Below are positions 15,212 through 59,096 of a stretch of DNA of 64,000 bases, in pieces (the stretch's first letter is position 1; the number at the start of each line of letters is the position of its first letter). The position numbers and the translations under genes were made by a program. Origin of the DNA: Patescibacteria group bacterium (GTDB taxonomy: Bacteria > Patescibacteriota > Minisyncoccia > Moranbacterales > UBA2206); contig JAKLIG010000003.1 in assembly GCA_022709735.1 (NCBI GenBank), forward strand, positions 70,384 to 134,383, given 5' to 3'. The notes under the pieces were generated by a model. The model searched no databases, was not told the origin of the DNA, and worked only from the letters and a program-made list of their open reading frames with translations.

Positions 15212-15703
15212 TTAATTAAGCCTTTTTCGAATAAGATAAACGAAAATAATTGGAATAATTAGCCAAAAGAAGTGAAACTCGGAAGAAACCAAGTATTTAT
15301 AAGCGTTTTCGGAAATGTAGCCGAGCGCTATTTTTTTAGGTAAAATTGAAAGAATAACACTTAGAAGCATTACTACTTCCAAAAAACTAACCGTGAAAAT
15401 TCGCCACAAAAATTGGGATCCGGAAATATAAACGCCAAAAATTCGTTTGCTAAAAATTGTAAATAAAATTAAAAGAATAAGGAAAAAAATCAACTCATAA
15501 GAATAATCCTTGAGATAATTTCCGGGAAAAGCCTCGAGAAGCGCCAGCGATATATAAGCGCTCATGAGAACTGCAATGAGTCGGCCACGACCAACCAAAA
15601 ATGCAAAAGCAACTGTTAGCAAAATTATAACTATCAAAAGAGAAAAGTCTTGCATGAAACTTGGCGAGATGCCTATTTTTGAAAAAAGTTCAATAAAGTT
15701 CAT
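15212..15703 (-). CDS. hypothetical membrane protein
   Basis: 163 aa with 4-5 predicted TM helices. Confidence 0.5.
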   Translation of the reverse strand: MNFIELFSKIGISPSFMQDFSLLIVIILLTVAFAFLVGRGRLIAVLMSAYISLALLEAFPGNYLKDYSYELIFFLILLILFTIFSKRIFGVYISGSQFLWRIFTVSFLEVVMLLSVILSILPKKIALGYISENAYKYLVSSEFHFFWLIIPIIFVYLIRKRLN

Positions 15704-15757
15704 ATGATTTTTATTTTAGTTTTTAATCTACGTTATTTATAGTATCAAGTATTTTAT

Positions 15758-15937
15758 CCCGCCCTTGCGAAATAGAAAGTCATAAATTAAAGTTTGCGAG
15801 TGTAAAAAATTTACTCATTATTATCCTAAGGGGAGTTTAGTAAATTTAACGAGCAAACTGAAAATTTATCTTTCTATGAGCCTGGGCGGCCTTTTTCTTT
15901 TCTGCCACTTTTCTTTTGGGAAAAGAAAAGTGGCGAA
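15758..15937. repeat. structured intergenic element, copy 1 (candidate sRNA or cis-regulatory element)
   Basis: It matches 35249-35427: CCCGCCCT, then AAAAATTTACTCATTA-TATCCTAAGGGGAGTTTAGTAAATTT (hairpin 1), then CTGGGCGGCC, then the 31-nt hairpin GCCACTTTTCTTTTGGGAAAAGAAAAGTGGC. Confidence 0.5.
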
Positions 15938-16015
15938 ATGTTATTGCGGAAAGAAAAAGTATAAATATTAAAATCTCATTTGGAATTTTATCATCATTTA
16001 ATTCTATTGCCAAAT

Positions 16016-17137
16016 TCATTCCCCCATCTTTTCCAACTCTTCAATAATCCTTTTTTGTTCTCGCGAAAGATTTTTTGGAATCCTGACAATAATTTTGACC
16101 AGCTGATTTCCCCGTCCTCGCCCGTGAATATCCGGCACGCCCTTATTTTTTATCCGAAAAGTTTCGCCTGATTGCGTTCCGGAGGGAATTTTCAAAATTA
16201 ATTTTCCTTCAATTGTTTCGATTTCAATTTCTCCGCCAAGCGTGGCGAGGGAAAAACTAATTTCCTCCGTGCTCAAAATATCATTGTCTCGGCGTGTAAA
16301 TTTATTGTGATTTTTGATGTGAATTAAAACATAAAGATCTCCGGATCTGGCGCCTTTTTCTCCGGCTTCACCCGCGCCTTGGATAGAGATTGTTTGACCA
16401 TTAGAAATTCCCGCCGGAATATTTATTTCCAGTTCTTGCTCTTTTTTTATTTTTCCGTCTCCTCCGCATTTTGTGCATTTCTTTTCATAAGTTTTTCCTT
16501 CTCCCTGGCAGTCCGGACAAACTGTCACTTGGGAAAAAGATCCAAAAAAACTGCGAGTGGTTTTCTGCACTTGTCCCGCGCCATGGCAAGTCGGACAAGT
16601 TTTGATGTTTGCTCCCGGCTCTCCTCCCGTTCCATTGCACCGGTCGCAAACTGCACTTTTATAAAGATTTATTTTTCTTTTCGCTCCGCTTACCATTTCA
16701 TAAAAATCTATTTCTACATCAACTTGAATGTCTTGGCCTCTTTTTTTTCTCCGACCTCTTCCTCCGTCTCCACCGCCAAAAATATTGGAAAAAATATCCT
16801 CAAAATCCGTTCCGCCAAAATCGAAGTTGCCAAAATCTCCGCCAAAGGCGGATCCGCCTCCGGCGGAAAATCCTGAAAAATCGAAACCTCCCGCTTGTCC
16901 GCCTTGGCCAGAAAAGCCTCCAGAACCATCAAAAGTCCGCCCAAATTGGTCGTATTGCTGTCTTTTGGTCTTATCGGAAAGCACTTGGTAAGCTTCGTTT
17001 ATTTCCTTGAATTTTTTTTCGTCTCCGCCGGCTTTGTCAGGATGATGTTTGTGCGCTAATTTTCGATACGCTCTTTTTATCTCATCATCCGACGCGCCTT
17101 TGGAAACGCCTAATATATTGTAATAATCATTCGCCAT
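16016..17137 (-). CDS. dnaJ: chaperone DnaJ
   Basis: It has a J-domain with HPD ([10 protein letters not shown]), a G/F-rich linker and four CxxCxGxG zinc-finger repeats. Confidence 0.95.
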
Positions 17138-20649: not shown

Positions 20650-22614
20650 TTATTCTTTTTTATCCCCTTCCTTCGTCTCCGCGTCCCGCACACTGTCATC
20701 TGATTTATTGGATGACTGTGCGTCCGCCGATGAGGCGGATTCGCTTGCCTGTCCGCCTTGGGCTGATTGCTGGGACTGCTGAGCCTCGTTAGCGGCTTTA
20801 TAAAGCTTCTCGCCGATTTTTTGTGCTGATTGAGATAATCCTTCGGTAGCTTTTTTGATAGCCTCAATATCATCTCCGTCTTTTACTTTCTTGAGCGCTT
20901 CAACTGCTTCTTCAACTGGTTTTTTTTCATCGGCAGTAATTTTGTCCCCAGCATCGCGAAGCGCTTTTTCTGTGGTATAAACCAAAGTGTCCGCCATATT
21001 TTTCGCTTCAATGAGTTCCTTCTTTTTCTTATCTTCCTCCGCATGTGCTTCAGCATCCTTTTTCATTTTTTCAATTTCATCTTTGGAAAGTCCCGTCGAA
21101 GCTTCAATGCGGATTGATTGCTCCTTGCCAGTGGCTTTGTCCTTAGCTTTGACAGAAAGTATTCCGTTGGCATCAATATCAAATGTCACTTCAATTTGCG
21201 GAATACCTCGAGGCGCTGGTGGAATACCGTCTAGAATAAATCTTCCAAGAGTTTTGTTGTCAGAAGCCATTTCTCGTTCGCCTTGCAAAACATGAATTTC
21301 GACTGATGGCTGGCTGTCAGCCGCAGTTGAAAATATTTGCGATTTGGCTGTTGGCACCGTCGTGTTTCGTTCTATGAGAGGTGTTCGCACTCCGCCCATT
21401 GTTTCAATTCCAAGTGTAAGGGGAGTCACATCCAAAAGTAATACATCTTTTACATCGCCTTGAAGCACTCCACCTTGGATTGCCGCACCAAGCGCCACTA
21501 CTTCATCCGGATTAACGGTGAGGTTAGTTTTCTTACCAAAAAAATCTTCCACTGTTTTTATGACAAGTGGCATTCTAGTCATTCCGCCAACCATCACTAT
21601 TTCATTTATATTCTTAGTTTCAAGCTTCGCATCCGCGAGAGCTTTTTTTGTTGGCTCCAAAGTTTTCTTGACCAAGTCTCCGACTAATTCTTCCAATTTC
21701 GCTCGAGTAATTTTCATCACTAAATGTTTCGGACCATTAGCGTCAGTCGTGATAAATGGCTGATTAATTTCTGTTTCCACTGCAGTTGAAAGTTCAATCT
21801 TAGCTTTTTCCGCCGCTTCTTTGATTCTTTGAAGCGCCAACGGGTCGTTTCCAAGATCAATACCTTCTTGTTTCTTAAATTCCGAAATAATCCAGTTAAT
21901 TATAATTTGGTCAAAGTCGTCTCCGCCAAGATGCGTGTCACCATTGGTTGATTTCACTTCCACTGTGTCGCCTCCCACTTCCAAAATAGAAATATCGAAA
22001 GTTCCGCCGCCAAGGTCATAAACCGCAATTTTTTCATCTTTCTTTTTGTTGAATCCATAAGCCAAAGCCGCCGCTGTTGGTTCATTGATAATGCGTCGAA
22101 CTTTGAGTCCCGCGATTTCTCCCGCTTCTTTGGTGGCTTTTCTTTGTGAGTCGTCAAAATAAGCCGGAACAGTAATCACTGCTTCGTCTATTTTTTCTCC
22201 CAATTTTTCTTCGGCATCCGCTTTTAATTTTCCAAGTATCATTGCAGAAATTTCTTGCGGTGTATAATCTTTGACTTGCCCCGAGCCTGTTGAGGGGTCT
22301 CCCATTTTTATTTTCACTCCGCCGTTTGATTTTTCAATTTTATACGGCATAAGCTTCATGTCTCTTTGCACTTCTTCGTCCGTAAAAGCCCGTCCGATCA
22401 GGCGCTTAATGGAAAATAGCGTGTTTTGCGGATTAGTCACGGCTTGGCGCTTAGCCAAAAGCCCGACCAATCTTTCCCCGGATTTTGAAATCGCCACCAT
22501 TGAAGGTGTAGTTCTCGCCCCTTCTTTGTTTTCAATTATTTCCGGCTTTCCGCCCTCCACGATTGCCATCGCGGAATTAGTTGTCCCCAAATCGATTCCT
22601 AATATTTTGCTCAT
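20650..22614 (-). CDS. dnaK: chaperone DnaK (Hsp70)
   Basis: It carries [18 protein letters not shown] and the Hsp70 signatures, followed by a C-terminal acidic tail. The product is 654 aa. Confidence 0.97.
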
Positions 22615-22735
22615 AGTTTTACAATAATTTTTAAATTTTTAATTTTTGAATTTTTAAATAAATCCAAATTTTAAATTTTTAAAAATTAGAAATTAAATAT
22701 TATTTATAAAATTAAAAATTACAAAATTAAAAATT

Positions 22736-23629
22736 TTACTCTACAATCACTCTCGCCACTCTAATTACTTTTTCTCCTATTTCATATCCCTTCATCACTA
22801 TTTTCTTTATTATTAATTCTTTTTCGCTTTCTTCTTTATTCTTACTTCCTTCTTCATGTTTTATGGCTTCCATAACACTGGGATCAAACTTATCTCCAAC
22901 TTTAACTGAAATTTCATTCACTCCATTATCTTCTAAAACTTTTTCTAATTGTTTCTGAATATGCATTATTCCAACTACCCATCCGCTTTCTTTCTGATCT
23001 TCCGGAATATGATCTGTCGAGGCATGGAAATTATCCAGCACCGGCAAAATTTCAGAAATTAAATTGGCATTAGAATAGGCAACAGTGTCTTTCAAATTTT
23101 CCGCCTGTCTTTTTTTATAATTTTCAAAATCAGCCATGCAACGCTTCCAGCCAGCAAGAGAATTTTTGAGCTCAATAATTTTTTGCGCTTTTAGGATCGT
23201 ATTTCTTTTTTCATTTTCAAAGCCGTCTTTCTCTGATAATTTCAGAAGTGCTTTTTCAAAAGAAAGCCACTCATATTCTTCGTGTTCCGGACTTAATTTA
23301 ACTTCTGTTGATTTGCTATAACAAATGCATCTTATTCCTCTTTTTTCTTCTTTGAAGAGCGGGCTATCTTTTGGAAATTCCACGACATCAATAATTTCTC
23401 CCAAAACAGTTTCGAGCCCGGCTTCTTCTTTGATTTCTCTTATTATAGAATCTTCAAAACTTTCATTCTCTCCGATGTGCCCACCGGGCAAATCATATTT
23501 TCCTGCATTCAGAAAATCGCTCTTTGCTCTCTTTAAAATCAAAACTTCATTATTTTCATTAAGAACCACCGCCTTGATTGTGAGCGCCATTGGACGCGGA
23601 TCTGAATCAACTTTTTTTTCTTTTTCCAT
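22736..23629 (-). CDS. grpE: NUDIX hydrolase-GrpE fusion protein (nucleotide exchange factor GrpE with N-terminal Nudix domain)
   Basis: The N-terminal ~150 aa carry a canonical Nudix box (GGHIGENESFEDSIIREIKEEAGL). The C-terminal ~150 aa are GrpE, with a coiled-coil and the KFDPSVMEAI..HEE signature. It sits between hrcA and dnaK. Confidence 0.8.
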   Translation of the reverse strand: MEKEKKVDSDPRPMALTIKAVVLNENNEVLILKRAKSDFLNAGKYDLPGGHIGENESFEDSIIREIKEEAGLETVLGEIIDVVEFPKDSPLFKEEKRGIRCICYSKSTEVKLSPEHEEYEWLSFEKALLKLSEKDGFENEKRNTILKAQKIIELKNSLAGWKRCMADFENYKKRQAENLKDTVAYSNANLISEILPVLDNFHASTDHIPEDQKESGWVVGIMHIQKQLEKVLEDNGVNEISVKVGDKFDPSVMEAIKHEEGSKNKEESEKELIIKKIVMKGYEIGEKVIRVARVIVE

Positions 23630-34438: not shown

Positions 34439-34552
34439 GAAAATTTTGTAATTTTGTAATTTTATAATTTTTAAATAATTTCTAATGCTAAAATTTTTAA
34501 ACATTGAAAAATAAGATTCATTTATAAAATTAAAAATTAAAAAATTAAAAAA

Positions 34553-35137
34553 TTAAATTGTATCGTACGCCTTTTCTATCGCCAAAATATTTTTATCACA
34601 AGCTTCTTTTCCTATTTTTTTCTCAAAAATTTCCCGGAATTCTTCTATCACGCTTTCGAGCTTTACTATTCCTGAAACTTTCACAAATTTTCCTAAAATC
34701 ACCGTATTGGGCCGAGGCGCTCCGATAATTTTCATGGATATTCCGCTAGCATCCACCGGATAAATTTTCCCAGAAAAATTACCTCCCCTTTCCATCATTT
34801 TTTCCCGCACTTTATGCTCCGGCATTTGGGTGTTTATTATTAAAAATTCATTTTTGTCTAAATTAAAAGCCACTTCCTGCGAATCCAAAAGAGTGTCATC
34901 AAGAACAACCACAAGATCCGGATCAACTACCGGCTCATGAGTGCGAATTTCACTATCTGAAATTCGAAGATAAGTTTTTGTCGGTGCGCCAGATCGCTCG
35001 GGTCCAAAACTCGGGAAAGCCTGGACGAATTTATTTTCAAATAAAGCCGACTGCGCTAAAATTTCCGCAGTAGTTTTTGCGCCCTGCCCTCCGCGGGCAA
35101 AAAAAATAACTTCAAAAATGTCTTTATGATACTTCAT
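34553..35137 (-). CDS. porG: pyruvate:ferredoxin oxidoreductase gamma subunit
   Basis: The ARGGQGAKT motif of POR gamma is present. Confidence 0.85.
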   Translation of the reverse strand: MKYHKDIFEVIFFARGGQGAKTTAEILAQSALFENKFVQAFPSFGPERSGAPTKTYLRISDSEIRTHEPVVDPDLVVVLDDTLLDSQEVAFNLDKNEFLIINTQMPEHKVREKMMERGGNFSGKIYPVDASGISMKIIGAPRPNTVILGKFVKVSGIVKLESVIEEFREIFEKKIGKEACDKNILAIEKAYDTI

Positions 35138-35248: not shown

Positions 35249-35427
35249 CCCGCCCTATAAAATAAAGCACTATAAATTGAGATTTTCTAGCGTTAAAAAT
35301 TTACTCATTAATATCCTAAGGGGAGTTTAGTAAATTTAGCGAGAAAATCGAAAATTTATTTCTTTATTTTATCTGGGCGGCCTTTTTTCTTTCTGCCACT
35401 TTCTTTTTGGGAAAAAGAAAGTGGCGA
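35249..35427. repeat. structured intergenic element, copy 2 (candidate sRNA or cis-regulatory element)
   Basis: It matches copy 1 at 15758-15937. The long hairpin here reads GCCACTTTCTTTTTGGGAAAAAGAAAGTGGC, with two compensatory base-pair swaps relative to copy 1. Confidence 0.5.
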
Positions 35428-35495
35428 ATAATTAAACAAAAAAACAACCTCTTTTCCAGAGATTGTTTTTGAAATAACGCTTTATTCTTACTTCT

Positions 35496-41508: not shown

Positions 41509-42243
41509 TTATTTCAAAATAGTTTCCCCGTCTTGCGCGATTCTTCTGTTTTTTACCGGATCATCCGCCACAATTTCTCCGTCTTTCATATAAAGAATTC
41601 TTTTGGCGTGTTCAGCGGTATAAGTTTCATGTGTTACCAAAATAATCGTGTGCCCTTCATCATTTAATTTTTGAAGAATTTTCATTACTTGCAGTCCCGA
41701 TTTTGAATCCAAGTTTCCAGTCGGTTCATCGGCAAAAATAATTTCCGGATTGTTGACCAGCGCTCTGGCAATCGCCACCCTTTGTTTTTCTCCGCCAGAA
41801 AGTTGATTGGAAAGATATTTCTCACGATGTTCCATGCCGACAGATTTCAAAGCATGCATCACTTTTTCCTGATTGATTCCATCTGGCTCCTGGTCATAAA
41901 GAAGAGGAAGCTCAACATTTTCAAAAACAGAAGTTCTTGGCAGAAGATTGAATGATTGAAAAACAAAACCGATTTTTTTGTTTCTAACTTTTGCCAAAGT
42001 ATCATCGCTAAATTTAGCCGCATCCTTTCCTTCGAGCAAATATTTTCCTTCTGTCGGACGATCAAGTAACCCAAGAACCTGCATTAAAGTTGATTTTCCG
42101 CTACCGCTCGGCCCCATAATCGAAAGAAATTCCCCCTTCTCCACGACAAAATTCGCTCCGCAAAGCGCCGGAGTTTTCACACCTTCATTTTCATAAACCA
42201 TACAAAGATTTTTAACCTGGATTAAAGACATAATTACATCCAA
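41509..42243 (-). CDS. ABC transporter ATP-binding protein (MacB/LolD-type)
   Basis: Walker [10 protein letters not shown], the signature LSGGEKQRV and Walker [13 protein letters not shown] are present. The true start is probably Met5 (42231). Confidence 0.9.
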
Positions 42244-42782
42244 ATATTTTCAACATTATTTCTGTCCTGTTCCCAATTTTTCGGATTATTTAGAATATAT
42301 TCACGGATTTTGTTCAACGATATTTCATTTCGGATGATATGGTCGTAAAAAGATTTTTGCCATATCGTAGGGAACGCGTATACGCGTTCCTTTTTATTAT
42401 TTTTATCATATCCGTTTTCCATTCGCGTTACAGCAGCTTTGAAGCCCTGGACAATTTTTGATAATAACATTTTTGTTCTATTGGTATTTTTGGAACGCAT
42501 ATATGCGTTCCCTACATTAATATTGAAATTTATTTCAATAATTCCGTGAACATGATTCGGCATTATGACATATTGATCTAAATATATATTATCAAAATGT
42601 TTAGGGATTTCTAAATAACATTTTTGAACAATTTTCCCTAATTCATTCAAAATCATTTTTCCATTTTTTATTCCACCAAACAATTCTTCCCTATTTTTCG
42701 TGCAAATTGTCACAAAATACATCCCGTTCTGGGAATAATCGTAATTTTGCAAACGATTGTTTTTTCTATTTTTTAATTCCAT
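42234..42782 (-). CDS. REP-associated tyrosine transposase (RAYT) / IS200-like HuH Y1 transposase homolog
   Basis: It has the HuH motif MPNHVHGII, the conserved IWQKSFYDHIIRNE (compare E. coli RAYT IWQPRFWEHAIRNT) and a catalytic-Tyr region REYILNNP. It is embedded between the HlyD-like gene and the ABC ATPase gene. Confidence 0.8.
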   Translation of the reverse strand: MELKNRKNNRLQNYDYSQNGMYFVTICTKNREELFGGIKNGKMILNELGKIVQKCYLEIPKHFDNIYLDQYVIMPNHVHGIIEINFNINVGNAYMRSKNTNRTKMLLSKIVQGFKAAVTRMENGYDKNNKKERVYAFPTIWQKSFYDHIIRNEISLNKIREYILNNPKNWEQDRNNVENIWM

Positions 42783-43904: not shown

Positions 43905-44333
43905 CTATAATAAGCTTCCTTGCTTCTCTTTTGCGTCAAGAGCCTGATTCACCAAGCTATCAGCAATCTCATTTTGCTCCCTCGGTATATGTATCATCTT
44001 AACATTTTTAAAGTCTAACATCAAATTCCAAACTTCGATAAAATTCTTTTGGACATTTGCTTCTTTCAGTTTATATTCGTGATTAAGTTGTTTCACCACT
44101 AACTCAGAGTCTAGATAGCATTCTATTTCAAATTGTTTGGTTTTATCTTTTCCAAGAAGTTGTTTTAGTTTTTTTAGGCTAAAAATCAGTGCTTCATATT
44201 CCGCCTCGTTATTGGTTTTCTCGCCAATATATTCGCCGTATTTTTTGTCCAGCGTTTCAACATAAACCCCAATCCCAGCTGGCCCCGGATTTCCTCTTGA
44301 TCCGCCATCAGTAAACATTTTAATAATATTCAT
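43905..44333 (-). CDS. rnhA: ribonuclease HI
   Basis: The N-terminus FTDGGSRGNPGPAGIG is followed by the DEDD catalytic residues. Confidence 0.85.
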   Translation of the reverse strand: MNIIKMFTDGGSRGNPGPAGIGVYVETLDKKYGEYIGEKTNNEAEYEALIFSLKKLKQLLGKDKTKQFEIECYLDSELVVKQLNHEYKLKEANVQKNFIEVWNLMLDFKNVKMIHIPREQNEIADSLVNQALDAKEKQGSLL

Positions 44334-44506
44334 AAAGAATTTTTAATTTTTGAATTTTTAATTTTGTAAATAAATTTTAATTTTTAATTTCTAAACTTTA
44401 TTTTATCGGTTGGTTTAAAAATTTAGATTTAAGATTTATTTCAAAAATTATAAAATTAAAAATTGTAAAAATTTTATTTACTACCATATGTAAGCGAATG
44501 GTAGTA

Positions 44507-46874: not shown

Positions 46875-46881
46875 AATTATA

Positions 46882-46970
46882 TTTACGAACTACGAAACGA
46901 CCGAATTACGAAACGCTTAAGCCACCCTTTCGTACTTTCGTATTTCGTATTTTTTTCGTATTTCGTAAAA
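46882..46970. repeat. ~88-bp TIR-bounded intergenic element (TTTACGAACTACGAAA ... TTTCGTATTTCGTAAAAC)
   Basis: It is one of three full-length copies and exactly fills the spacer between the acs stop and the response-regulator start. Confidence 0.6.
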
Positions 46971-46971
46971 C

Positions 46972-49029
46972 TTAAATAATTATTTTAACATCCACGGCAG
47001 TCGCCTCCTGACCATTATTATAAACAAATAGCGGGTTTATATCAAACTCGCAAATTTCCGGAATTTCCAGCGATAGCGCGCCAATTCCCATAAGAATTCT
47101 GGCTGTTTCTTCCAAATTATATTTCCTTTGCCCGCGAACGCCTTGGAATAAAAATTTAATTTTTCCTTCTGTCAAAGATTTTTCCGTTTCACCTAAATTC
47201 AACGGTGGCACAAGATAGTCCACTGTTTTCAGAAATTCCGCATAAATTCCACCCAAACCATAAACCACGACCGGTCCAAAAATTTCATCTTTTTTTATCC
47301 CAACTATAAGTTCCATTCCTTTTTCTGCCATTGGTTGGATTATAAATTTGCTTCCCGGAAAGCTTGTATGCATTCTGGATATAGCCTTAGAAAGTTCTGA
47401 TTCATCTTTGATGCCCAAAATCAAACCATTCTTATCGGTTTTATGCAAAATTTTGTCGCTATCAATTTTGAGTGCCACTGGATACCGAAAAGTTCTTTCC
47501 CGATAATTTTGAATTTCAAAACTTTCCACTGTAGAAATTCCGTATAATTTCATAACCTCCGCGCTTTCTTCAAAATATAGCGCTTGGCGATTTTCTGATT
47601 TGGCACGCTTTATTATTTCTAAAACTTTTTCTTGCCTTTTTTTATTGATTATCTGTGCTTCGCTTTTTATTTTTAAATTCTTAGATTCGCTCCATTTATA
47701 ATATTCGTCAATCGCCAAAACTGCGCTGTCAGGAAAATTAAAATTACATATTCCACTTTGTTTTAGCTTTGCAATTCCCTTTTCCACTTTCTCTCCGCCC
47801 AAAAAAACTGTCGAAATTATCTTGTCAGTTTTTTCTTTGAATTTTATTATCTCCGAAGCAATTTTAAGAACTGGCGTTTGCTCTTGTGGAGTAAGCAGAC
47901 AAATGACTGAACCGATTTCTTCGACTTTGGAAATTATTTCCAAAACATTTCTGTATCGATCAGCTGTGGCGTCACCCAAAAGATCAATCGGATTTTCCAC
48001 TGATGATTCCAGCGGAAGAATTTCTCGCAATTTATTTTTTGTTTCTTCGTCAAAATTTGCCATCTGTATATTTTTTCCAGAAAAAGCATCAGAAGCCAAA
48101 ACTCCCGCTCCGCCGGCGTTCGTTATAACCGCCACTTTTTGGTTGGGGAATGTTTCAGAAAAACTAATAAGACTTAGTAGATTGAAAAATTCTCCCAAAT
48201 TTTCTGCCCGAATTATTCCAGCTTTTTTTAAAACTGCCGAAACAATTTCGTCATCGCCGGCAAGCGCCCCAGTATGCGAGCTGATGGCTTTTTGCGTTTT
48301 TTCATTTTTTCCCGCCTTGAGAATAACCACTGGCTTAACACGAGAGACATTTCCAACAATTTCAACAAATTTTTTTCCACCTTTTATTCCTTCAAGATAC
48401 ATTCCAATCACTTTCGTATTTTCGTCTTTCGCTAAATATTCGAGCATTTCTTCTTCCGCAATTTGCATTTTGTTCCCGACAGAAACAATGTTGGAAAATT
48501 TCAATCCTTCTTTTTTTGCTTTGTCCATAAGCGCTACCGCGAGAGCTCCCGATTGCGAAACAAAAGAAATGTTTCCGGCTTCCGGCATCCCGCCGGCAAA
48601 AGAAGCGTTGAGCTTGAGGCTTGGAATAATAAATCCCAAACAATTCGGTCCCAAAATATTCAAATCATTTTCTTTGGCAATTTTCGCCAAGTCTTCTTCC
48701 TGCTTTCTTCCTTCTTTGCCAATTTCAGAAAACCCCGCCGAAATCACAATATAGTTTTTTATTTTTTCGGCATTGTTTTTTATTTCTTGATTTACAAACT
48801 TCGCCGGTATGGCAATAATCGCCAAATCAACTTCTTTTTCAATTTCATTTAAAGATTTATGACATTTCTTCCCAAAAATTTCATCGTATTTCGGATTCAC
48901 TAAAAAAACTTCGCCTTGATATCCAAGCTCGATTATATTTTTTGCAATCACATTGCCAATCTTGCCTTCTTCTGATGAAGCCCCGACAACCGCGATTGAT
49001 TTAGGATTAAAAAGTTTTTCTAAGTTCAT
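46972..49029 (-). CDS. acetyl-CoA synthetase (ADP-forming), fused alpha/beta subunits
   Basis: It has an N-terminal CoA-binding domain (IAVVGASSEEGKIGN), succinyl-CoA-synthetase-like domains and a C-terminal ATP-grasp. The product is 685 aa. Confidence 0.8.
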   Translation of the reverse strand: MNLEKLFNPKSIAVVGASSEEGKIGNVIAKNIIELGYQGEVFLVNPKYDEIFGKKCHKSLNEIEKEVDLAIIAIPAKFVNQEIKNNAEKIKNYIVISAGFSEIGKEGRKQEEDLAKIAKENDLNILGPNCLGFIIPSLKLNASFAGGMPEAGNISFVSQSGALAVALMDKAKKEGLKFSNIVSVGNKMQIAEEEMLEYLAKDENTKVIGMYLEGIKGGKKFVEIVGNVSRVKPVVILKAGKNEKTQKAISSHTGALAGDDEIVSAVLKKAGIIRAENLGEFFNLLSLISFSETFPNQKVAVITNAGGAGVLASDAFSGKNIQMANFDEETKNKLREILPLESSVENPIDLLGDATADRYRNVLEIISKVEEIGSVICLLTPQEQTPVLKIASEIIKFKEKTDKIISTVFLGGEKVEKGIAKLKQSGICNFNFPDSAVLAIDEYYKWSESKNLKIKSEAQIINKKRQEKVLEIIKRAKSENRQALYFEESAEVMKLYGISTVESFEIQNYRERTFRYPVALKIDSDKILHKTDKNGLILGIKDESELSKAISRMHTSFPGSKFIIQPMAEKGMELIVGIKKDEIFGPVVVYGLGGIYAEFLKTVDYLVPPLNLGETEKSLTEGKIKFLFQGVRGQRKYNLEETARILMGIGALSLEIPEICEFDINPLFVYNNGQEATAVDVKIII

Positions 49030-49074
49030 CTTTTTGTTTTAATTTATTTTCTATAACAATTACTAGCCTATTAA

Positions 49075-49104
49075 CATTCTCATATTCTGCAGAATGTGAG
49101 AATG
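49075..49104. promoter_or_regulatory. 30-bp palindrome CATTCTCATATTCTGCAGAATGTGAGAATG (candidate operator), copy B
   Basis: It is the exact reverse complement of copy A (19017-19046) and lies 45 bp upstream of the acs ATG. Confidence 0.5.
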
Positions 49105-49112
49105 TTCTTTTT

Positions 49113-50102
49113 CTATGAAATTTCTTCTTCCTTTAAGAGTCCCTTTACTGCTCCGAAATTTTTGATTGCGCTGGCGCTGTTTTCAATGCCCCATTTCAAA
49201 CATTCTCCTAAATTTTTTCCTTTGAGATGCGCCGAAATAAATCCACTAGAAAACGCGTCGCCGGCTCCCAAGGTGTCCGCCACTTTTTCTTTTTTGGCTT
49301 CAACATGCAAAAATTCTTTTCCATCAAATCCCCACGCGCCTCTCTGCCCATCTGTAAGAGCAATGATTTTAGCGCCTAATCTATTCAATTTTTCCGCTAA
49401 AAATTTCTCGTCATTAATCATCTCATTATTTGAGTCGTCTAATTTATCCACTATCTCAATCGCTTCGTCTTTGTTGATTATTAGCATTTCTGATTGACGG
49501 ATAGCTTCAATCACTTTCTCCTGATTGTTTTTGATATTTTTTTGTCCCGGATTAAAAATTAATTTTATGTTTTCCTCTGAAATTAAATTCAAAATCTTAT
49601 CCAGTTTTTTGTCCCAACTTTCGTCCACATTCCCATTGAGCGAACTTAGGAAAATCCACTGAGCGCCAATTTTCTTAATTTCCTCCGGAATTATTTCCAG
49701 CTTTTCATTGGAATCGCGATCAGAAAAAATTATCCGGTCTTCGCTCGGAATATGCGCCACAATCGCCGAAAGATCACTCTTGTGATTTTTCCCCACTTGC
49801 ACTAAATCAGTTTTGACGCCGTTTGTTTCCAATTCTTTTTTGAGCCATTTTCCTGCATCGTCATCGCCCAATCTTGTAGCACAATATGTTTCAACTCCAA
49901 GACGCGCGAGTCCTGAGGCGACATTAGCCGCACAACCGCCAATGGACTCGTGGCGCTCCTCAAGAACTTGATATTTGGCGCCAAGTTCAAAAACAATTTT
50001 TTTCTGTGCTTCCAAATCTTCCGGTGTTTCCTTGACTTCCCCTTCACTGATTGGAAAAATTATATCTTTCGCCGACGAACCTAAACATATTATTTTTGTC
50101 AT
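49113..50102 (-). CDS. PfkB-family carbohydrate kinase (ribokinase-like)
   Basis: It has the C-terminal DTLGAGDAF signature and N-terminal GG motifs. Confidence 0.75.
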   Translation of the reverse strand: MTKIICLGSSAKDIIFPISEGEVKETPEDLEAQKKIVFELGAKYQVLEERHESIGGCAANVASGLARLGVETYCATRLGDDDAGKWLKKELETNGVKTDLVQVGKNHKSDLSAIVAHIPSEDRIIFSDRDSNEKLEIIPEEIKKIGAQWIFLSSLNGNVDESWDKKLDKILNLISEENIKLIFNPGQKNIKNNQEKVIEAIRQSEMLIINKDEAIEIVDKLDDSNNEMINDEKFLAEKLNRLGAKIIALTDGQRGAWGFDGKEFLHVEAKKEKVADTLGAGDAFSSGFISAHLKGKNLGECLKWGIENSASAIKNFGAVKGLLKEEEIS

Positions 50103-54959: not shown

Positions 54960-54968
54960 AATTCTTTA

Positions 54969-55055
54969 TTTACGAACTACGAAATTAGCGAAATACGAAA
55001 CATTTAAACTCCTTTTTCGTACTTTCGTATTTAGTATTTATTTCGTAGTTCGTAA
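54969..55055. repeat. ~88-bp TIR-bounded intergenic element
   Basis: TTTACGAACTACGAAAT...TTTCGTAGTTCGTAA fills the spacer between the mraY stop and the pgk start. Confidence 0.6.
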
Positions 55056-55061
55056 TGTAAT

Positions 55062-58488: not shown

Positions 58489-58509
58489 ACTGTTTGGTTA
58501 ATTATCTAA

Positions 58510-58598
58510 TTTACGAACTACGAAATGAGCAAACTACGAAACATTCGAACTTCCTTTTCGTATTTTCGTATTTCGTATTTTTTTCGTAGTTCGTAAAA
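58510..58598. repeat. ~88-bp TIR-bounded intergenic element
   Basis: TTTACGAACTACGAAATGAGCAAACTACGAAAC...TTTCGTATTTTTTTCGTAGTTCGTAAAAC fills the spacer between the 58599 stop and the scpA start. Confidence 0.6.
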
Positions 58599-59096
58599 CT
58601 ATTTCTTTTTGCTAAAACTTCCCTTGACCACTTCCTCTTTTTTTATATATTCACTGGTATTAATCAAAATTGATTCCGTATATTCTCCTGATCCGGTATA
58701 AATTTTCTTGTTTTTGAGAAGCAGACTGTCGGCAAAAATATCTAATTTTATAAGACCGCGAAATGGCGGAGTAGCGCCGACTTTTCCTTCTAAATTCTTT
58801 TTCATCCAAACTTCTTTGGCAAAATCAATTTTTTTGCTGTTTTTTAAGCCCTGCTTTTTCCTTTGCGCATTAATGAGTTTCAATAATTTCTGCTTGTCTA
58901 AATTCCTGTTTCCCGGTATTAGCGCTAAAACATAATTATTATCCGCTTTCATAACCAAAGCTTTCGCCACCATTTTTGGATCAATTTTTTCCGTCTGCGC
59001 CGTGTCCCAAGCTGTGAAGGTTTTTTTATGATCAATGATATTATATTTATATTTTTTCTCTTCTAAATATTTTTGGATTTTTTTAGAAATAGCCAT
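58599..59096 (-). CDS. YbaK/ProX-family aminoacyl-tRNA deacylase
   Basis: 165 aa with YbaK-like conserved Lys and GxxxG-type residues. Confidence 0.6.
   Translation of the reverse strand: MAISKKIQKYLEEKKYKYNIIDHKKTFTAWDTAQTEKIDPKMVAKALVMKADNNYVLALIPGNRNLDKQKLLKLINAQRKKQGLKNSKKIDFAKEVWMKKNLEGKVGATPPFRGLIKLDIFADSLLLKNKKIYTGSGEYTESILINTSEYIKKEEVVKGSFSKKK

Follow-up and report, generated by a model that had tools for sequence, protein, structure and literature searches.

The window analysed here, a 64,000-nt stretch of Patescibacteria DNA, contains two structured intergenic elements on the forward strand. Copy 1, which the initial annotation placed between dnaJ and a membrane-protein gene, occupies positions 15758–15937 (+), running from CCCGCCC at 15758–15764 to a final GAA that ends at 15937, and copy 2, placed between a DsbA-like gene and porG, occupies 35249–35428 (+). 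Both were found where that annotation had located them, and all of the blocks it described are present in both copies, namely AAAATTTACTC...GAGTTTAGTAAATTT with CCTAAGGGGAG in the loop, CTGGGCGGCC, and 31-nt perfect hairpins. Two of its measurements needed correction: the gap in the loop-bearing hairpin is 16 nt instead of 15 nt, and the distance between the element 5′ end and the following minus-strand start codon is 55 bp for copy 1 and 112 bp for copy 2, instead of 100–150 bp. In the repeat finder, the two copies shared 77% identity across 125 nt and 89% across 56 nt. In each, a rod hairpin of ~130 nt comes first, then a pyrimidine tract, and last a perfect 14-bp hairpin, and a degenerate pattern of this 3′ module matched exactly the two copies, with a shuffle expectation of 0.00. 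At least one copy had been miscalled as a spurious gene, a 57-aa ORF at 15846–16019 (−); we rejected this frame as a real or recurrent gene, as it had zero homologues among 5.8 billion proteins.

In copy 1, the rod (15758–15889, +) is an imperfect hairpin closed by CCCGCCC (15758–15764) and GGGCGG (15884–15889), with an MFE fold z-score of −7.1, a GAA bulge, and a conserved asymmetric loop, GUGUAAAA, which reads GCGUUAA in other members of the family described below. The pyrimidine tract Y1 (TTTTTCTTTTCT), read from the sequence, spans 15892–15903 (+); within it, 15893–15902 (TTTTCTTTTC) is the parallel Hoogsteen complement of the purine arm AAAAGAAAAG, and 15903 is a 1-nt linker. The 31-nt perfect hairpin GCCACTTTTCTTTT GGG AAAAGAAAAGTGGC at 15904–15934 (+) comprises a GCCA/TGGC clamp, the pyrimidine arm CTTTTCTTTT (15908–15917), the GGG loop (15918–15920) and the purine arm (15921–15930), and the conserved unit ends with the GAA tail at 15935–15937 (+). 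This tail occurs in all members with the GCCA/TGGC clamp (module types A–D), reading GAG in one, and the end of type E differs. Copy 2 has the same layout, with a rod at 35249–35380 (+) closed by CCCGCCC (35249–35255) and GGGCGG (35375–35380; z-score −7.5), a tract Y1 (TTTTTTCTTTCT) read at 35383–35394 (+), in which 35384–35393 (TTTTTCTTTC) is the parallel complement of AAAAAGAAAG and 35394 is the linker, and a 31-nt perfect hairpin GCCACTTTCTTTTT GGG AAAAAGAAAGTGGC at 35395–35425 (+), with a GCCA/TGGC clamp, the arm CTTTCTTTTT, the GGG loop at 35409–35411 and the purine arm AAAAAGAAAG. Its conserved GAA tail lies at 35426–35428 (+). Alignments assigned the copy 2 rod to a subfamily shared with members L023, L024, L025, L031a and L032, and its hairpin variant (type B) is also found in L024, L031a and L032.

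The differences between the two copies preserve pairing. In the 14-bp stem, the two left-arm changes pointed out in the initial annotation are indeed paired with two right-arm changes (15904–15934 versus 35395–35425), and the rod carries further compensatory changes, AGTTTGC/GCAAACT versus GATTTTC/GAAAATC and ATAGAAAG/CTTTCTAT versus ATAAAATAAAG/CTTTATTTTAT. The tract before the last hairpin also varies together with both arms (TTTTTCTTTTCT in copy 1, TTTTTTCTTTCT in copy 2). The suggestion that selection acts on structure held up in 17 further copies, where variation in the rod and the 14-bp stem was compensatory and not random. Folding z-scores ranged from −6.9 to −7.5, with none of 200 shuffles folding equally well, and a MAFFT alignment yielded 18 compensatory pairs. 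In a CM alignment of 17 sequences, 97.1% of cells were paired, compared with 41–54% in slid controls, and 25 of the 47 pairs were double-changed, corresponding to 115 cells against 32.8 ± 4.5 in shuffles (0/500 shuffles reached 115). Nineteen rod pairs were changed on both sides among 17 sequences, and the 14-bp hairpin corresponds to helix 5 of the family covariation alignment.

When the two strands were compared, the rod MFE was lower on the + strand in 17 of 18 members, by 3–17 kcal/mol (5 kcal/mol in copy 1), and a control hairpin repeat in the same window exhibited no strand bias. Among the 10 reliable sequences, the + strand contained G·U in 15 cells and A·C in none, a count that is weaker strand evidence than first thought because the commonest "U·G" falls in the conserved GUUAA loop and may be unpaired; the strand energy asymmetry is still seen in L033b, which lacks any G·U. 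In the commonest module, type C, the hairpin has a C·A mismatch on the + strand and G·U on the − strand. We consider it likely that the + strand is the folding strand, which is antisense to the flanking genes and C-rich, with a GC skew of −0.18.

The two elements are copies of an undescribed intergenic repeat family of ~185 nt from a Candidatus Moranbacteria clade (Patescibacteria/CPR). Across Candidatus Moranbacteria genomes and metagenomes, we identified 19 members at ~13 different intergenic sites, with two copies in 64 kb of the window genome and 0–2 per locus in relatives, represented by pieces of at most 20 kb. Several orthologous sites in relatives are empty: the dnaJ spacer measures 144–180 bp in relatives versus 312 bp in the window genome, and L035 and L036 have a recO spacer of 67 bp. 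Conversely, the window lacks the element at 49030–49118, a site that is occupied in L015 and L016. Rearranged copies include a remnant in L006, an inverted pair in L019 and chimeras in L020 and L033a, and module types were exchanged as units between copies (L023 versus L024; L033a). The neighbouring genes share no common function (dnaJ, dsbA-like, an rseP-like M50 protease, a 336-aa gene, recO, HlyD-like and a U32 peptidase), and at all eight loci with co-oriented flanking genes, the element has the same orientation relative to them. The scattered sites, the empty orthologues and the chimeras, remnant and inverted pair indicate a dispersed repeat family and not a regulator of particular genes. 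We regard the family as almost certainly a dispersed repeat selected for structure, a behaviour shared with REPIN and ERIC, in whose hairpins compensatory change is likewise frequent (PMC3116915). The variable sites and unrelated neighbours, together with the lack of a conserved 5′ promoter, lend no support to the proposal of an independent sRNA gene, or of a riboregulator that controls the adjacent genes.

Comparison with Rfam, which had been suggested as a check, yielded zero family matches: Rfam 15 detected only three tRNAs over the whole window, and permissive scans of copy 1, L015 and L031b produced hairpin noise at 10–24 bits against thresholds of 40–195. Viral contigs scanned for the element gave 0 matches. 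A GTDB genome scan with CCCGCCC...CCTAAGGGGAG...GGGCGG returned a single GC-rich chance match, and it is uninformative on the spread of the family because the apical loop motif was later found to be unconserved.

The 3′ module occurs in five types, A–E, with copy 1 carrying type A and copy 2 type B. A single rule relates its three tracts: in every type, the tract is the complete parallel (Hoogsteen) complement of the purine arm, in a fixed register of tract, 1 linker base and 4-bp clamp. The parallel matches were 10/10, 10/10, 10/10, 8/8 and 8/8 for types A–E, with tract-shuffle probabilities of a full match of 0.023, 0.023, 0.10, 0.13 and 0.13, respectively. The best antiparallel runs were 10, 8, 10, 7 and 5, with a register that shifts between types. 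Parallel and antiparallel matching can be told apart in types B, D and E alone, the tracts of the other types being mirror-symmetric. Across a 5-nt spacer, the tract mirrors the pyrimidine arm at 10, 10, 9, 7 and 8 positions. In types C and D, the tract tracks the purine arm (T opposite A) and the pyrimidine arm retains C, which argues against H-DNA in a duplex and also against a purine-motif triplex on the other strand. Type E, which was recovered via rod similarity and not via a pattern that constrains the tract, differs in its clamp (TTAC/GTAA) and its loop, and its tract is asymmetric (TTCTTTTT with AAGAAAAA). As modules are swapped as units between copies, the types represent few independent events. 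A generic scan of 350 kb for other hairpins with pyrimidine and purine arms and a matching third tract found none outside the family, with imperfect coverage of the + strand. Judged from the sequence rule, the chance that the 3′ hairpin is wrapped into a U·A-U/C+·G-C triple helix approaches even. C+·G-C triples require cytosine protonation.

Several other readings of the module were considered and dismissed. Member L033b appeared to have its module replaced by a canonical terminator, but a longer flank revealed a 20-nt GC palindrome inserted within the third tract of an otherwise intact type E module. A pseudoknot in which the GGG loop pairs with the CC that precedes the tract was rejected, given that a loop of 3 nt is unable to pair and that loop 3 would shrink to 0–1 nt. 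A GCGG/CCGC match in L019a resembled covariation for this pseudoknot. AAAAGAAAAG-TGGCGAA looks like a retroviral PPT plus tRNA primer-binding site over 7–10 nt, a likeness that type E lacks.

We further examined promoters, terminators and gene ends around the copies. No conserved + strand promoter was found at a fixed position 5′ of the element, and only copy 1 has a 10/12 sigma-70-like site, ~45 nt upstream on the + strand. As the initial annotation had stated, neither window hairpin is followed by a real U tract; copy 1 was flagged only by a lenient scan, owing to AAATGTTATT. The 14-bp hairpin is thus unlike an intrinsic terminator, being followed by GAA and mixed sequence on the + strand and by AGAAAAGAAAAAGG on the − strand. 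Under a criterion of a GC-rich stem base with a U-rich tract within 0–3 nt, the rod and tract on the + strand formally fit a putative intrinsic terminator, as GGGCGG-CC-UUUUUCUUUU in types A–C and GGCUGA-GAG-UUCUUUUU in type E. A canonical bidirectional terminator lies beyond copy 2, so that the copy 2 hairpin would not be the very 3′ end. At least five of the loci have a convergent gene whose stop codon is 3–5 nt away from the hairpin end. The distance from the stop to the hairpin is 3–5 nt in L013, L015, L022 and at the recO locus, and it grows to 16 nt in L016 and 33 nt in L020. The following start codon in L013 lies just 22 nt from the rod, which makes gene-sense read-through almost certain there. 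Hairpins directly after stops are routine in the window genome, as in the D1 family and at window positions 49030–49118.

Our preferred reading, to which we give slightly less than an even chance, is that of a single-stranded, probably RNA, element with a triple-helix-wrapped 3′ hairpin. The unit would act as a single strand, folded from the + strand and most probably in the form of RNA. One part would be an imperfect rod of ~60 bp with conserved purine-rich loops, and the other the 3′ hairpin, with an all-pyrimidine 5′ arm, an all-purine 3′ arm and the U/C tract in front. Running parallel to the purine arm, the tract would occupy the major groove and form 8–10 consecutive U·A-U and C+·G-C triples, with the 1-nt linker connecting it to the 4-bp mixed-sequence clamp at the hairpin base. 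From the sequence patterns we infer RNA as the nucleic acid, actual formation of the triplex and a protective role, in which the wrapped hairpin would cap the transcript's 3′ part against nucleases, much as triple helices do in MALAT1 and PAN-type RNAs; the family would persist and turn over within genomes through duplication and gene conversion between copies. Protection of the 3′ end by the module, which is argued by analogy, is doubtful. More tentatively than the preferred reading itself, we propose that the module may be a natural intramolecular pyrimidine-motif RNA triplex of 8–10 consecutive triples, in which a hairpin is wrapped by its own 5′ flank with three-way covariation, capping the transcript of a dispersed repeat in a bacterium. 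Helices of this length have precedents in the protective 10-triple helix of MALAT1 (PMC6379651) and in a crystal structure with 11 consecutive triples (PMC7102945). Counting against the preferred reading are the lack of a conserved promoter 5′ of the rod, the C·A mismatch on the + strand (G·U on the − strand) of the commonest module, type C, and the palindrome within the third tract of L033b. Hairpins 3–5 nt from convergent stop codons are also explained more easily by a role in the gene-sense transcript.

Such a gene-sense (minus strand) role would make the unit a 3′-UTR or intercistronic element, in which the 14-bp hairpin after the stop acts as an exonuclease barrier or unconventional terminator and the rod further stabilises polycistronic mRNA or marks a site for its processing, roles that have been proposed for REP and ERIC elements. 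It would account for the hairpin-to-stop distances in L013, L015, L016, L020, L022 and the recO locus, the short interval between the L013 rod and the next start codon, the routine use of hairpins after stops in the window genome, the G·U rather than C·A pair of type C on the − strand, and the constant orientation at the eight loci with co-oriented genes. However, the − strand rod fold is worse in 17 of 18 members and one-sided changes become A·C mismatches on that strand; a − strand U tract is missing after the hairpin and is not consistent after the rod; and in copy 2 and L019a, the element lies beyond the upstream gene's own canonical terminator. The mirror rule on the − strand would moreover require a purine-motif RNA triplex, which to our knowledge is not known to be stable, and the tract of types C and D would then match the wrong arm. 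We regard this role as quite unlikely. A + strand RNA that does without a triplex appears very unlikely. In such an RNA, the rod and U5CU4 tract would be an intrinsic terminator, or the tract would form Watson-Crick and G·U pairs with the purine arm as a two-state switch. All types do have a GC-rich closing stem followed after 2–3 nt by a U-rich tract, antiparallel runs of 10, 8, 10, 7 and 5 pairs are possible, and the GC palindrome before a T5 run in L033b is a textbook terminator on the + strand; avoidance of a sense-oriented terminator inside operons could also explain the orientation bias. Yet the antiparallel register shifts, down to 5 pairs in type E, whereas the parallel match is always complete and in one register, the alternative helix, with ~10 A-U pairs, is no match for a 14-bp hairpin at about −20 kcal/mol, and the U tract of a terminator would not shift its C in step with the downstream arms.

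Two further readings place the structure in DNA. The rod and hairpin could be REPIN-like ssDNA that, once folded, is acted on by a domesticated Y1 transposase (HUH, IS200-like/RAYT-like) whose gene lies elsewhere in the genome; the demands of excision and copying would then keep the structure conserved, and a T·A-T/C+·G-C fold in ssDNA would underlie the triple-tract rule. Dispersed copies with variable presence, remnants and chimeras would be expected of such an element, TIRs and TSDs are missing as in REPINs, DNA hairpins also tolerate G·T, and compensatory change is common in REPINs, with predicted ssDNA or mRNA folds (PMC3116915). Two different Y1_Tnp genes above the Pfam threshold are encoded in these genomes: the window gene (42234–42782) sits exactly where L017 has an element, and the second lies 1.5 kb from the L013 element and adjoins the L006 remnant. 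Nevertheless, no element flanks the Y1_Tnp genes at L006 18100–18642 and L013 8266–8808, and the window gene abuts both neighbours without a spacer on either side. Copy number is low (two in 64 kb, and 0–2 per 20 kb in relatives), REPINs numbering tens to hundreds of copies per genome, the GTAG-type conserved 5′ tetranucleotide is missing, and there appears to be no short inverted REP pair. The C-rich folding strand, antisense to genes, is presumably the leading-strand template and not the lagging-strand template used by IS200/IS605 enzymes, and overall we consider REPIN-like ssDNA unlikely. In duplex DNA, the mirror repeat of tract, 5-nt spacer and pyrimidine arm might form H-DNA under negative supercoiling and act on replication or transcription, with the inverted repeat as a separate overlapping feature. 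Although a perfect or near-perfect homopyrimidine mirror repeat is present in all five types, its arms are only 8–10 bp, which is short for H-DNA, and the tract of types C and D follows the purine arm instead of the duplex partner of the pyrimidine arm. The compensatory upkeep of the inverted repeat and clamp and the strand asymmetry of the rod would both go unexplained, which leaves H-DNA extremely improbable.

Long protective RNA triple helices have been described in lncRNAs of vertebrates, in herpesvirus RNAs and in the RNAs of plant and fungal transposons. The cases given for bacteria in one review (PMC13541005) are short, ligand-linked triples of riboswitches and introns. Three tracts that co-vary in a triplex-like manner are not known for bacterial repeats. 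If the preferred reading is true, the family would supply comparative evidence for a long bacterial triplex, of a kind for which we found no report, and bacteria would have a counterpart of the ENE/MALAT1 3′ caps whose topology is simpler and had not been described before. The module would offer a minimal model of triplex folding of ~50 nt, as well as a handle on transcript stabilisation or insulation in the tiny CPR genomes, in which many RNA-handling systems are missing. Even without a triplex, this is a new structured repeat family of Patescibacteria whose pairing covaries clearly, whose modules recombine and whose copies keep to an orientation rule; genome annotation also benefits from it.

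Among known systems, several candidates were rejected. The ends of a MITE are not present, as CCCRCCC... and ...TGGCGAA are not mutually inverted and the flanks of 14 members share no duplication. 6S RNA occupies a single conserved locus and forms a long rod with a large central bubble, whereas the element has only small internal loops, no Rfam match and multiple copies with variable presence. Integron attC sites follow the order R''(RYYYAAC)...R'(GTTRRRY) beside an integron integrase and cassette array; here, GTTAAAA on the 5′ arm and TTTAGC on the 3′ arm are in the wrong order on either strand, and the neighbours are housekeeping genes. A retron msr/msd was dismissed because no RT lies nearby. 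ERIC/IRU are imperfect palindromes of ~130 bp at variable intergenic locations, with a presumed RNA-level effect on nearby transcripts. The element resembles these and similar repeats of enterobacteria and Bacillus (general review PMC3184786) in its rod-sized intergenic imperfect palindrome and variable locations, but it belongs to another phylum without sequence relation and has an orientation rule, a thermodynamic strand bias and a separate, near-invariant 3′ module. The rod forms one long, imperfect hairpin whose apical part varies. Set against REPIN/RAYT systems, the element does not appear to be composed of two short inverted REPs: its conserved blocks are not two self-palindromic REP copies, and conservation is highest in the non-symmetric 3′ module, whose three matched tracts are an addition to the REPIN layout. 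It also differs in lacking a GTAG-type end and a flanked Y1 gene, in its few copies and in a folding strand that is apparently the leading-strand template. The two are alike in being short, non-coding, hairpin-forming intergenic repeats with variable presence between relatives, compensatory hairpin changes, no TIRs or TSDs, and Y1/HUH transposase-like genes in the same genomes (PMC3116915, PMC3337134).

With intrinsic terminators, the element shares GC-clamped hairpins beside U-rich tracts at gene ends, and the rod with its tract fits the formal definition on the + strand; the 14-bp hairpin, however, has its U-rich tract 5′ on the + strand and an A-rich tract 3′ on the − strand, which is wrong both ways, and the tract covaries with the arms. 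The major-groove triples of H-type pseudoknots (telomerase RNA, SAM-II and preQ1-II; PMC13541005) likewise have a 5′-joined pyrimidine strand in the deep groove, parallel to a purine-rich 3′ strand, and short linkers able to span several base pairs across that groove. Unlike them, the module has no second stem, and pairing of a GGG loop of 3 nt with the CC that precedes the tract is not possible; the known bacterial cases comprise only 2–4 triples and bind ligands. The ENE/A-rich-tract triplexes of MALAT1, MEN-beta, PAN RNA and transposon RNAs (PMC6379651, PMC4836648, PMC7583470) differ from the module in that they use an ENE stem-loop with a U-rich internal loop to clamp a 3′ tail. In the module, the purine strand would be the 3′ arm of a simple hairpin and the third strand the 5′ flank of that hairpin, joined via a 1-nt linker and 4-bp clamp, with only GCCAC or TTAC between the two pyrimidine strands, and the host of the repeat is bacterial. 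The likeness to the ENE-type triplexes extends to a run of ~10 consecutive U·A-U triples with embedded C+·G-C, which for the module is predicted, a Hoogsteen tract (UUUUUCUUUU) similar in kind, and a proposed role as a nuclease-resistant 3′ structure, which for the repeat is read from sequence alone. Both share the 5′-to-3′ order of Hoogsteen strand, Watson-Crick pyrimidine strand and purine strand, and in the sequences of all five variants, the module has the polarity of these triplexes, with two U-rich strands and one A-rich strand and the Hoogsteen strand running parallel to the purine strand.

We examined the two structured intergenic elements of the window, and their positions and sequence blocks agreed with the initial annotation: copy 1 spans 15758–15937, opening with CCCGCCC and closing with GAA, and copy 2 occupies 35249–35428. 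A repeat finder aligned them at 77% identity over 125 nt and 89% over 56 nt, and a degenerate pattern of the 3′ module matched these two copies alone in the window (0.00 expected). The 31-nt hairpins were indeed perfect in both, with two substitutions per arm between copies and pairing retained. Absent from that annotation were a single rod hairpin formed by the first 130 nt of each copy (closing pair CCCGCCC/GGGCGG), with several additional compensatory differences between copies, and a pyrimidine tract 5′ of the last hairpin that varies between copies in step with the hairpin arms. Folding z-scores were about −7 for each copy on either strand, equalled by 0 of 200 shuffles. The proposed check against Rfam 15, at gathering thresholds, returned three tRNAs only in the window and no family for the elements, and permissive Rfam scans of three family members gave weak hairpin noise only.

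The genes flanking copy 1, on the minus strand, are dnaJ and that of a 163-aa membrane protein, whose NCBI name assigns its source to a Candidatus Moranbacteria MAG and whose homologues all come from Moranbacteria or unnamed metagenomes. Copy 2 is flanked, also on the minus strand, by a DsbA/thioredoxin-like gene and the gene of the POR gamma subunit; a canonical bidirectional terminator-like hairpin (35440–35470; A tract, 13-bp stem, T tract) lies between the dsbA-like stop codon and this copy. A 57-aa ORF present as a gene call in public records (15846–16019, minus strand) overlaps the dnaJ stop by ATGA and runs through the hairpin and tract of copy 1; it is probably spurious, because it had zero homologues among 5.8 billion proteins.

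The window also contains other repeats. D1, a second hairpin-forming intergenic repeat (46881–46972, 54968–55059, and 58509–58600), has TTCGTA/TACGAA units, copies that are 80–85% identical, and strands that fold equally well. Each copy fills the ~100-bp spacer of co-oriented minus-strand genes, beginning 2–3 nt past the upstream stop codon. A/T-rich direct repeats (TAATTTTTAAATTTTTAATTTTTGAATTTT-like, 71–81% identical) occur at 22614–22738, 34454–34556, and 44325–44475, with one copy immediately upstream of the por gene cluster.

Across the window and loci from relatives and metagenomes (L handles; a and b denote separate copies within one locus), the family comprises 19 copies at about 13 sites. 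One metagenome scan, using a pattern in which the informative tract positions were left free, yielded ten genuine members plus a single chance match that was GC-rich; nhmmer recovered a second, inverted copy in L019, and loci fetched via RecO homologues provided five further members. The covariance-model search suggested in the initial annotation added none in the 285 kb searched, and a GTDB scan by apical-loop pattern and a viral scan were dead ends. At L019 (3996–4350), two members, one with a truncated rod, lie head to head with an identical flank (TTTTTCTGAAAGAAAAATTAGCGCTGTA) outside each; this pair is an inverted duplication.

Occupancy differed among genomes, evidence that the family turns over. 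The dnaJ spacer, fetched via the membrane protein, measures 144–180 bp in four relatives versus 312 bp in the window, and the element is therefore missing there in these relatives. In one relative, this spacer holds an 84-aa GIY-YIG gene (L026 1369–1623, L027 2542–2796, L028 1048–1302), and it is apparently a hot spot for insertions. One of the four relatives, L013, carries a member at a different site, the spacer between M50 protease and CYTH genes, where L006 and L007 have a 46-nt remnant only. L015 and L016 are occupied at a spacer whose window orthologue (49030–49118) has, 7 nt past a stop codon, only an imperfect plain hairpin (AACATTCTCAcATTCTGCAGAATaTGAGAATGTT); in the window genome, stop codons seem as a rule to be followed directly by hairpins. 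Five genomes have the element in the recO spacer, which is empty in L035 and L036. The copies in L020 and L033a have rods that are chimeric between subfamilies, and L033a retains, behind its newer module, an older module's right arm; L023 and L024 represent one locus (RecO 95% identical) with module types A and B, respectively. The window also encodes a 182-aa Y1_Tnp (IS200-like) protein (42234–42782, minus strand; Pfam 37.8 bits), whose gene abuts an HlyD-like gene and an ABC ATPase gene with no spacer on either side; the ORF includes two inverted palindromes, GGAACGC-N6-GCGTTCC (42371–42390 and 42492–42511). In L017, a family member occupies the HlyD-like/ABC ATPase spacer in place of this gene. 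A different 180-aa Y1_Tnp gene (24.7 bits; L006 18100–18642, L013 8266–8808), missing from the window, adjoins the L006 and L007 remnants; in L013, 1.5 kb separates it from the element.

For 12 members in a plain MAFFT alignment, RNAalifold gave 47 pairs, 18 with compensatory change. Alignments guided by the covariance model, which are biased towards the model but concordant with the MAFFT result, had 97.5% of cells paired for 12 sequences (68 doubly changed cells versus 22.6 ± 3.5 in shuffles) and 97.1% for 17 sequences, where double changes affected 25 of 47 pairs and 115 cells (shuffles, 32.8 ± 4.5; reached by 0 of 500). Slid controls of the 17 sequences were 41–54% paired, with at most 12 doubly changed cells. 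The 14-bp stem has six doubly changed pairs, clamp included (GCCA/TGGC versus TTAC/GTAA). Selection on structure, to which the two copies had pointed in the initial annotation, is thus borne out by further members, and the family is a dispersed repeat selected for structure. Its neighbours have no common function, so it is not a cis-regulator of a pathway, and the riboregulator suggested in the initial annotation is unsupported in that form.

On the + strand, on which the sequences are written, the rod had the lower minimum free energy in 17 of 18 members, by 3–17 kcal/mol, the exception being the truncated L019b. This asymmetry stems largely from purine-rich internal loops (GUUAA, GAA), since it is present even in a member without G·U pairs; the D1 control repeat showed no strand bias, differing by at most 1.7 kcal/mol either way. 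One-sided changes among ten reliably aligned members comprised 15 G·U cells and no A·C, although the commonest G·U may sit in a loop. With a GC skew of −0.18, the element's + strand is C-rich; it is antisense to genes and is probably the folding strand. It was antisense to co-oriented neighbours at all eight determinable sites (copy 1, copy 2, L013, L015/L016, L017, the recO locus, L019a, and L020). The hairpin end points to the stop codon of the gene on its side, at 3–5 nt (L013, L015, L022, L023, L024, L032), 16 nt (L016), 33 nt (L020), or 67–100 nt (copies 1 and 2, L019a). For copy 2 and L019a, whose upstream genes possess canonical terminators of their own, the element is situated past the terminator. 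No conserved promoter was found 5′ of the rod.

The 3′ modules fall into five types, written 5′–3′ on the + strand. Type A (TTTTCTTTTC-T-GCCA-CTTTTCTTTT-GGG-AAAAGAAAAG-TGGC) is found in copy 1, L022, and L023; type B (TTTTTCTTTC-T-GCCA-CTTTCTTTTT-GGG(C)-AAAAAGAAAG-TGGC) in copy 2, L024, L031a, and L032; type C (TTTTCTTTTT-T-GCCA-CTTTTCTTTT-GGG-AAAAGAAAAA-TGGC) in eight members; type D (TTTCTTTT-T-GCCA-CTTTCTTT-GCCGCC-AAAGAAAA-TGGC) in L019a; and type E (TTCTTTTT-G-TTAC-TTTTTCTT-GCGGA-AAGAAAAA-GTAA) in L033a, L031b, and L033b. In L033 (about 15700–15740, minus strand), a GC-rich 20-nt palindrome (CCTGCCTACCGGCAGGCAGG), missing from the orthologous L031b, is inserted into a type E module, inside its third tract, and with the T5 behind it mimics a canonical terminator.

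In all five types, the tract equals the purine arm in the same reading direction, with A changed to T and G to C, and the register is constant: tract, one linker base, 4-bp clamp. At the sequence level, this is the code of a putative pyrimidine-motif third strand parallel to the purine strand. Parallel matches for types A–E were 10/10, 10/10, 10/10, 8/8, and 8/8, with full matches in 2.3%, 2.3%, 10%, 13%, and 13% of shuffled tracts; the best antiparallel Watson–Crick/G·U runs were 10, 8, 10, 7, and 5. Types A and C are mirror-symmetric and so do not distinguish polarity, whereas B, D, and E do, with parallel favoured in all three. The cleanest case is type E, with an asymmetric tract and a different clamp and loop; its tract was unconstrained by the search pattern because this type was identified by similarity of the rod. 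In types C and D, the tract has T opposite a purine-arm A while the pyrimidine arm retains C; the tract therefore tracks the purine arm, a pattern that is consistent with a fold-back single strand. Because module types transfer between copies as units, independent events are few, perhaps four. Allowing for this, the joint chance probability is roughly 1e-4; it would be about 8e-7 were the types independent.

We tentatively propose that the + strand of this structure-selected repeat, most likely as RNA, would form a rod and a triplex-wrapped 3′ hairpin, a full mechanism that falls a little short of probable. The data establish the family, its turnover, the covariation, the strand asymmetry, and the rule linking the three tracts; we infer that the element acts as RNA and that the triplex forms in the 3′ module. 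The third strand would be attached to the 5′ end of the helix bound by it, a topology that H-type pseudoknots show between loop 1 and stem 2. In such pseudoknots, 1–2 nt can span several base pairs of the deep groove. By analogy with the protective MALAT1-type triple helices (PMC6379651, PMC4836648), the triplex may protect the transcript's 3′ portion against exonucleases, and a structure with 11 consecutive triples shows that such lengths are feasible (PMC7102945).

A REPIN-like single-stranded DNA element mobilised by a Y1 transposase is an unlikely explanation: Y1_Tnp genes are present, one exactly at the site of the L017 element, and compensatory change is seen in REPINs as well (PMC3116915), but the element flanks no Y1 gene, the copy number observed is low, and its folding strand appears to be the leading-strand template. 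Somewhat less likely again is a gene-sense 3′ hairpin or mRNA stabiliser, which would account for the closeness to stop codons and for the G·U that type C gives on the gene-sense strand; it is opposed by the asymmetry of the rod, the missing U tract, and a tract that tracks the wrong arm.

We regard as improbable a + strand RNA without a triplex, whose tract would be a terminator U tract or an alternative Watson–Crick partner. In its favour are a formally terminator-like shape and the insertion in L033b, but the antiparallel register shifts and shrinks between types, and the alternative helix is weak. H-DNA is very improbable, as a tract following the purine arm in types C and D is inconsistent with duplex H-DNA or a minus-strand purine-motif triplex.

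Among other candidates, a pseudoknot with the hairpin loop and attC, 6S, retron, and PPT/PBS identities were dropped. In its genomic behaviour, the family resembles REP, REPIN, and ERIC elements; by the testable membership criteria, it does not qualify as a REPIN or a MITE. As prokaryotic triple helices, a 2026 review lists triples of riboswitches and of group II introns (PMC13541005); for bacterial repeats or sRNAs, we found no report of a long pyrimidine-motif triplex. If real, the triplex proposed here would represent a bacterial 3′ cap with a new topology, similar in its working to the ENE/MALAT1 triple helices but of a different and simpler architecture.
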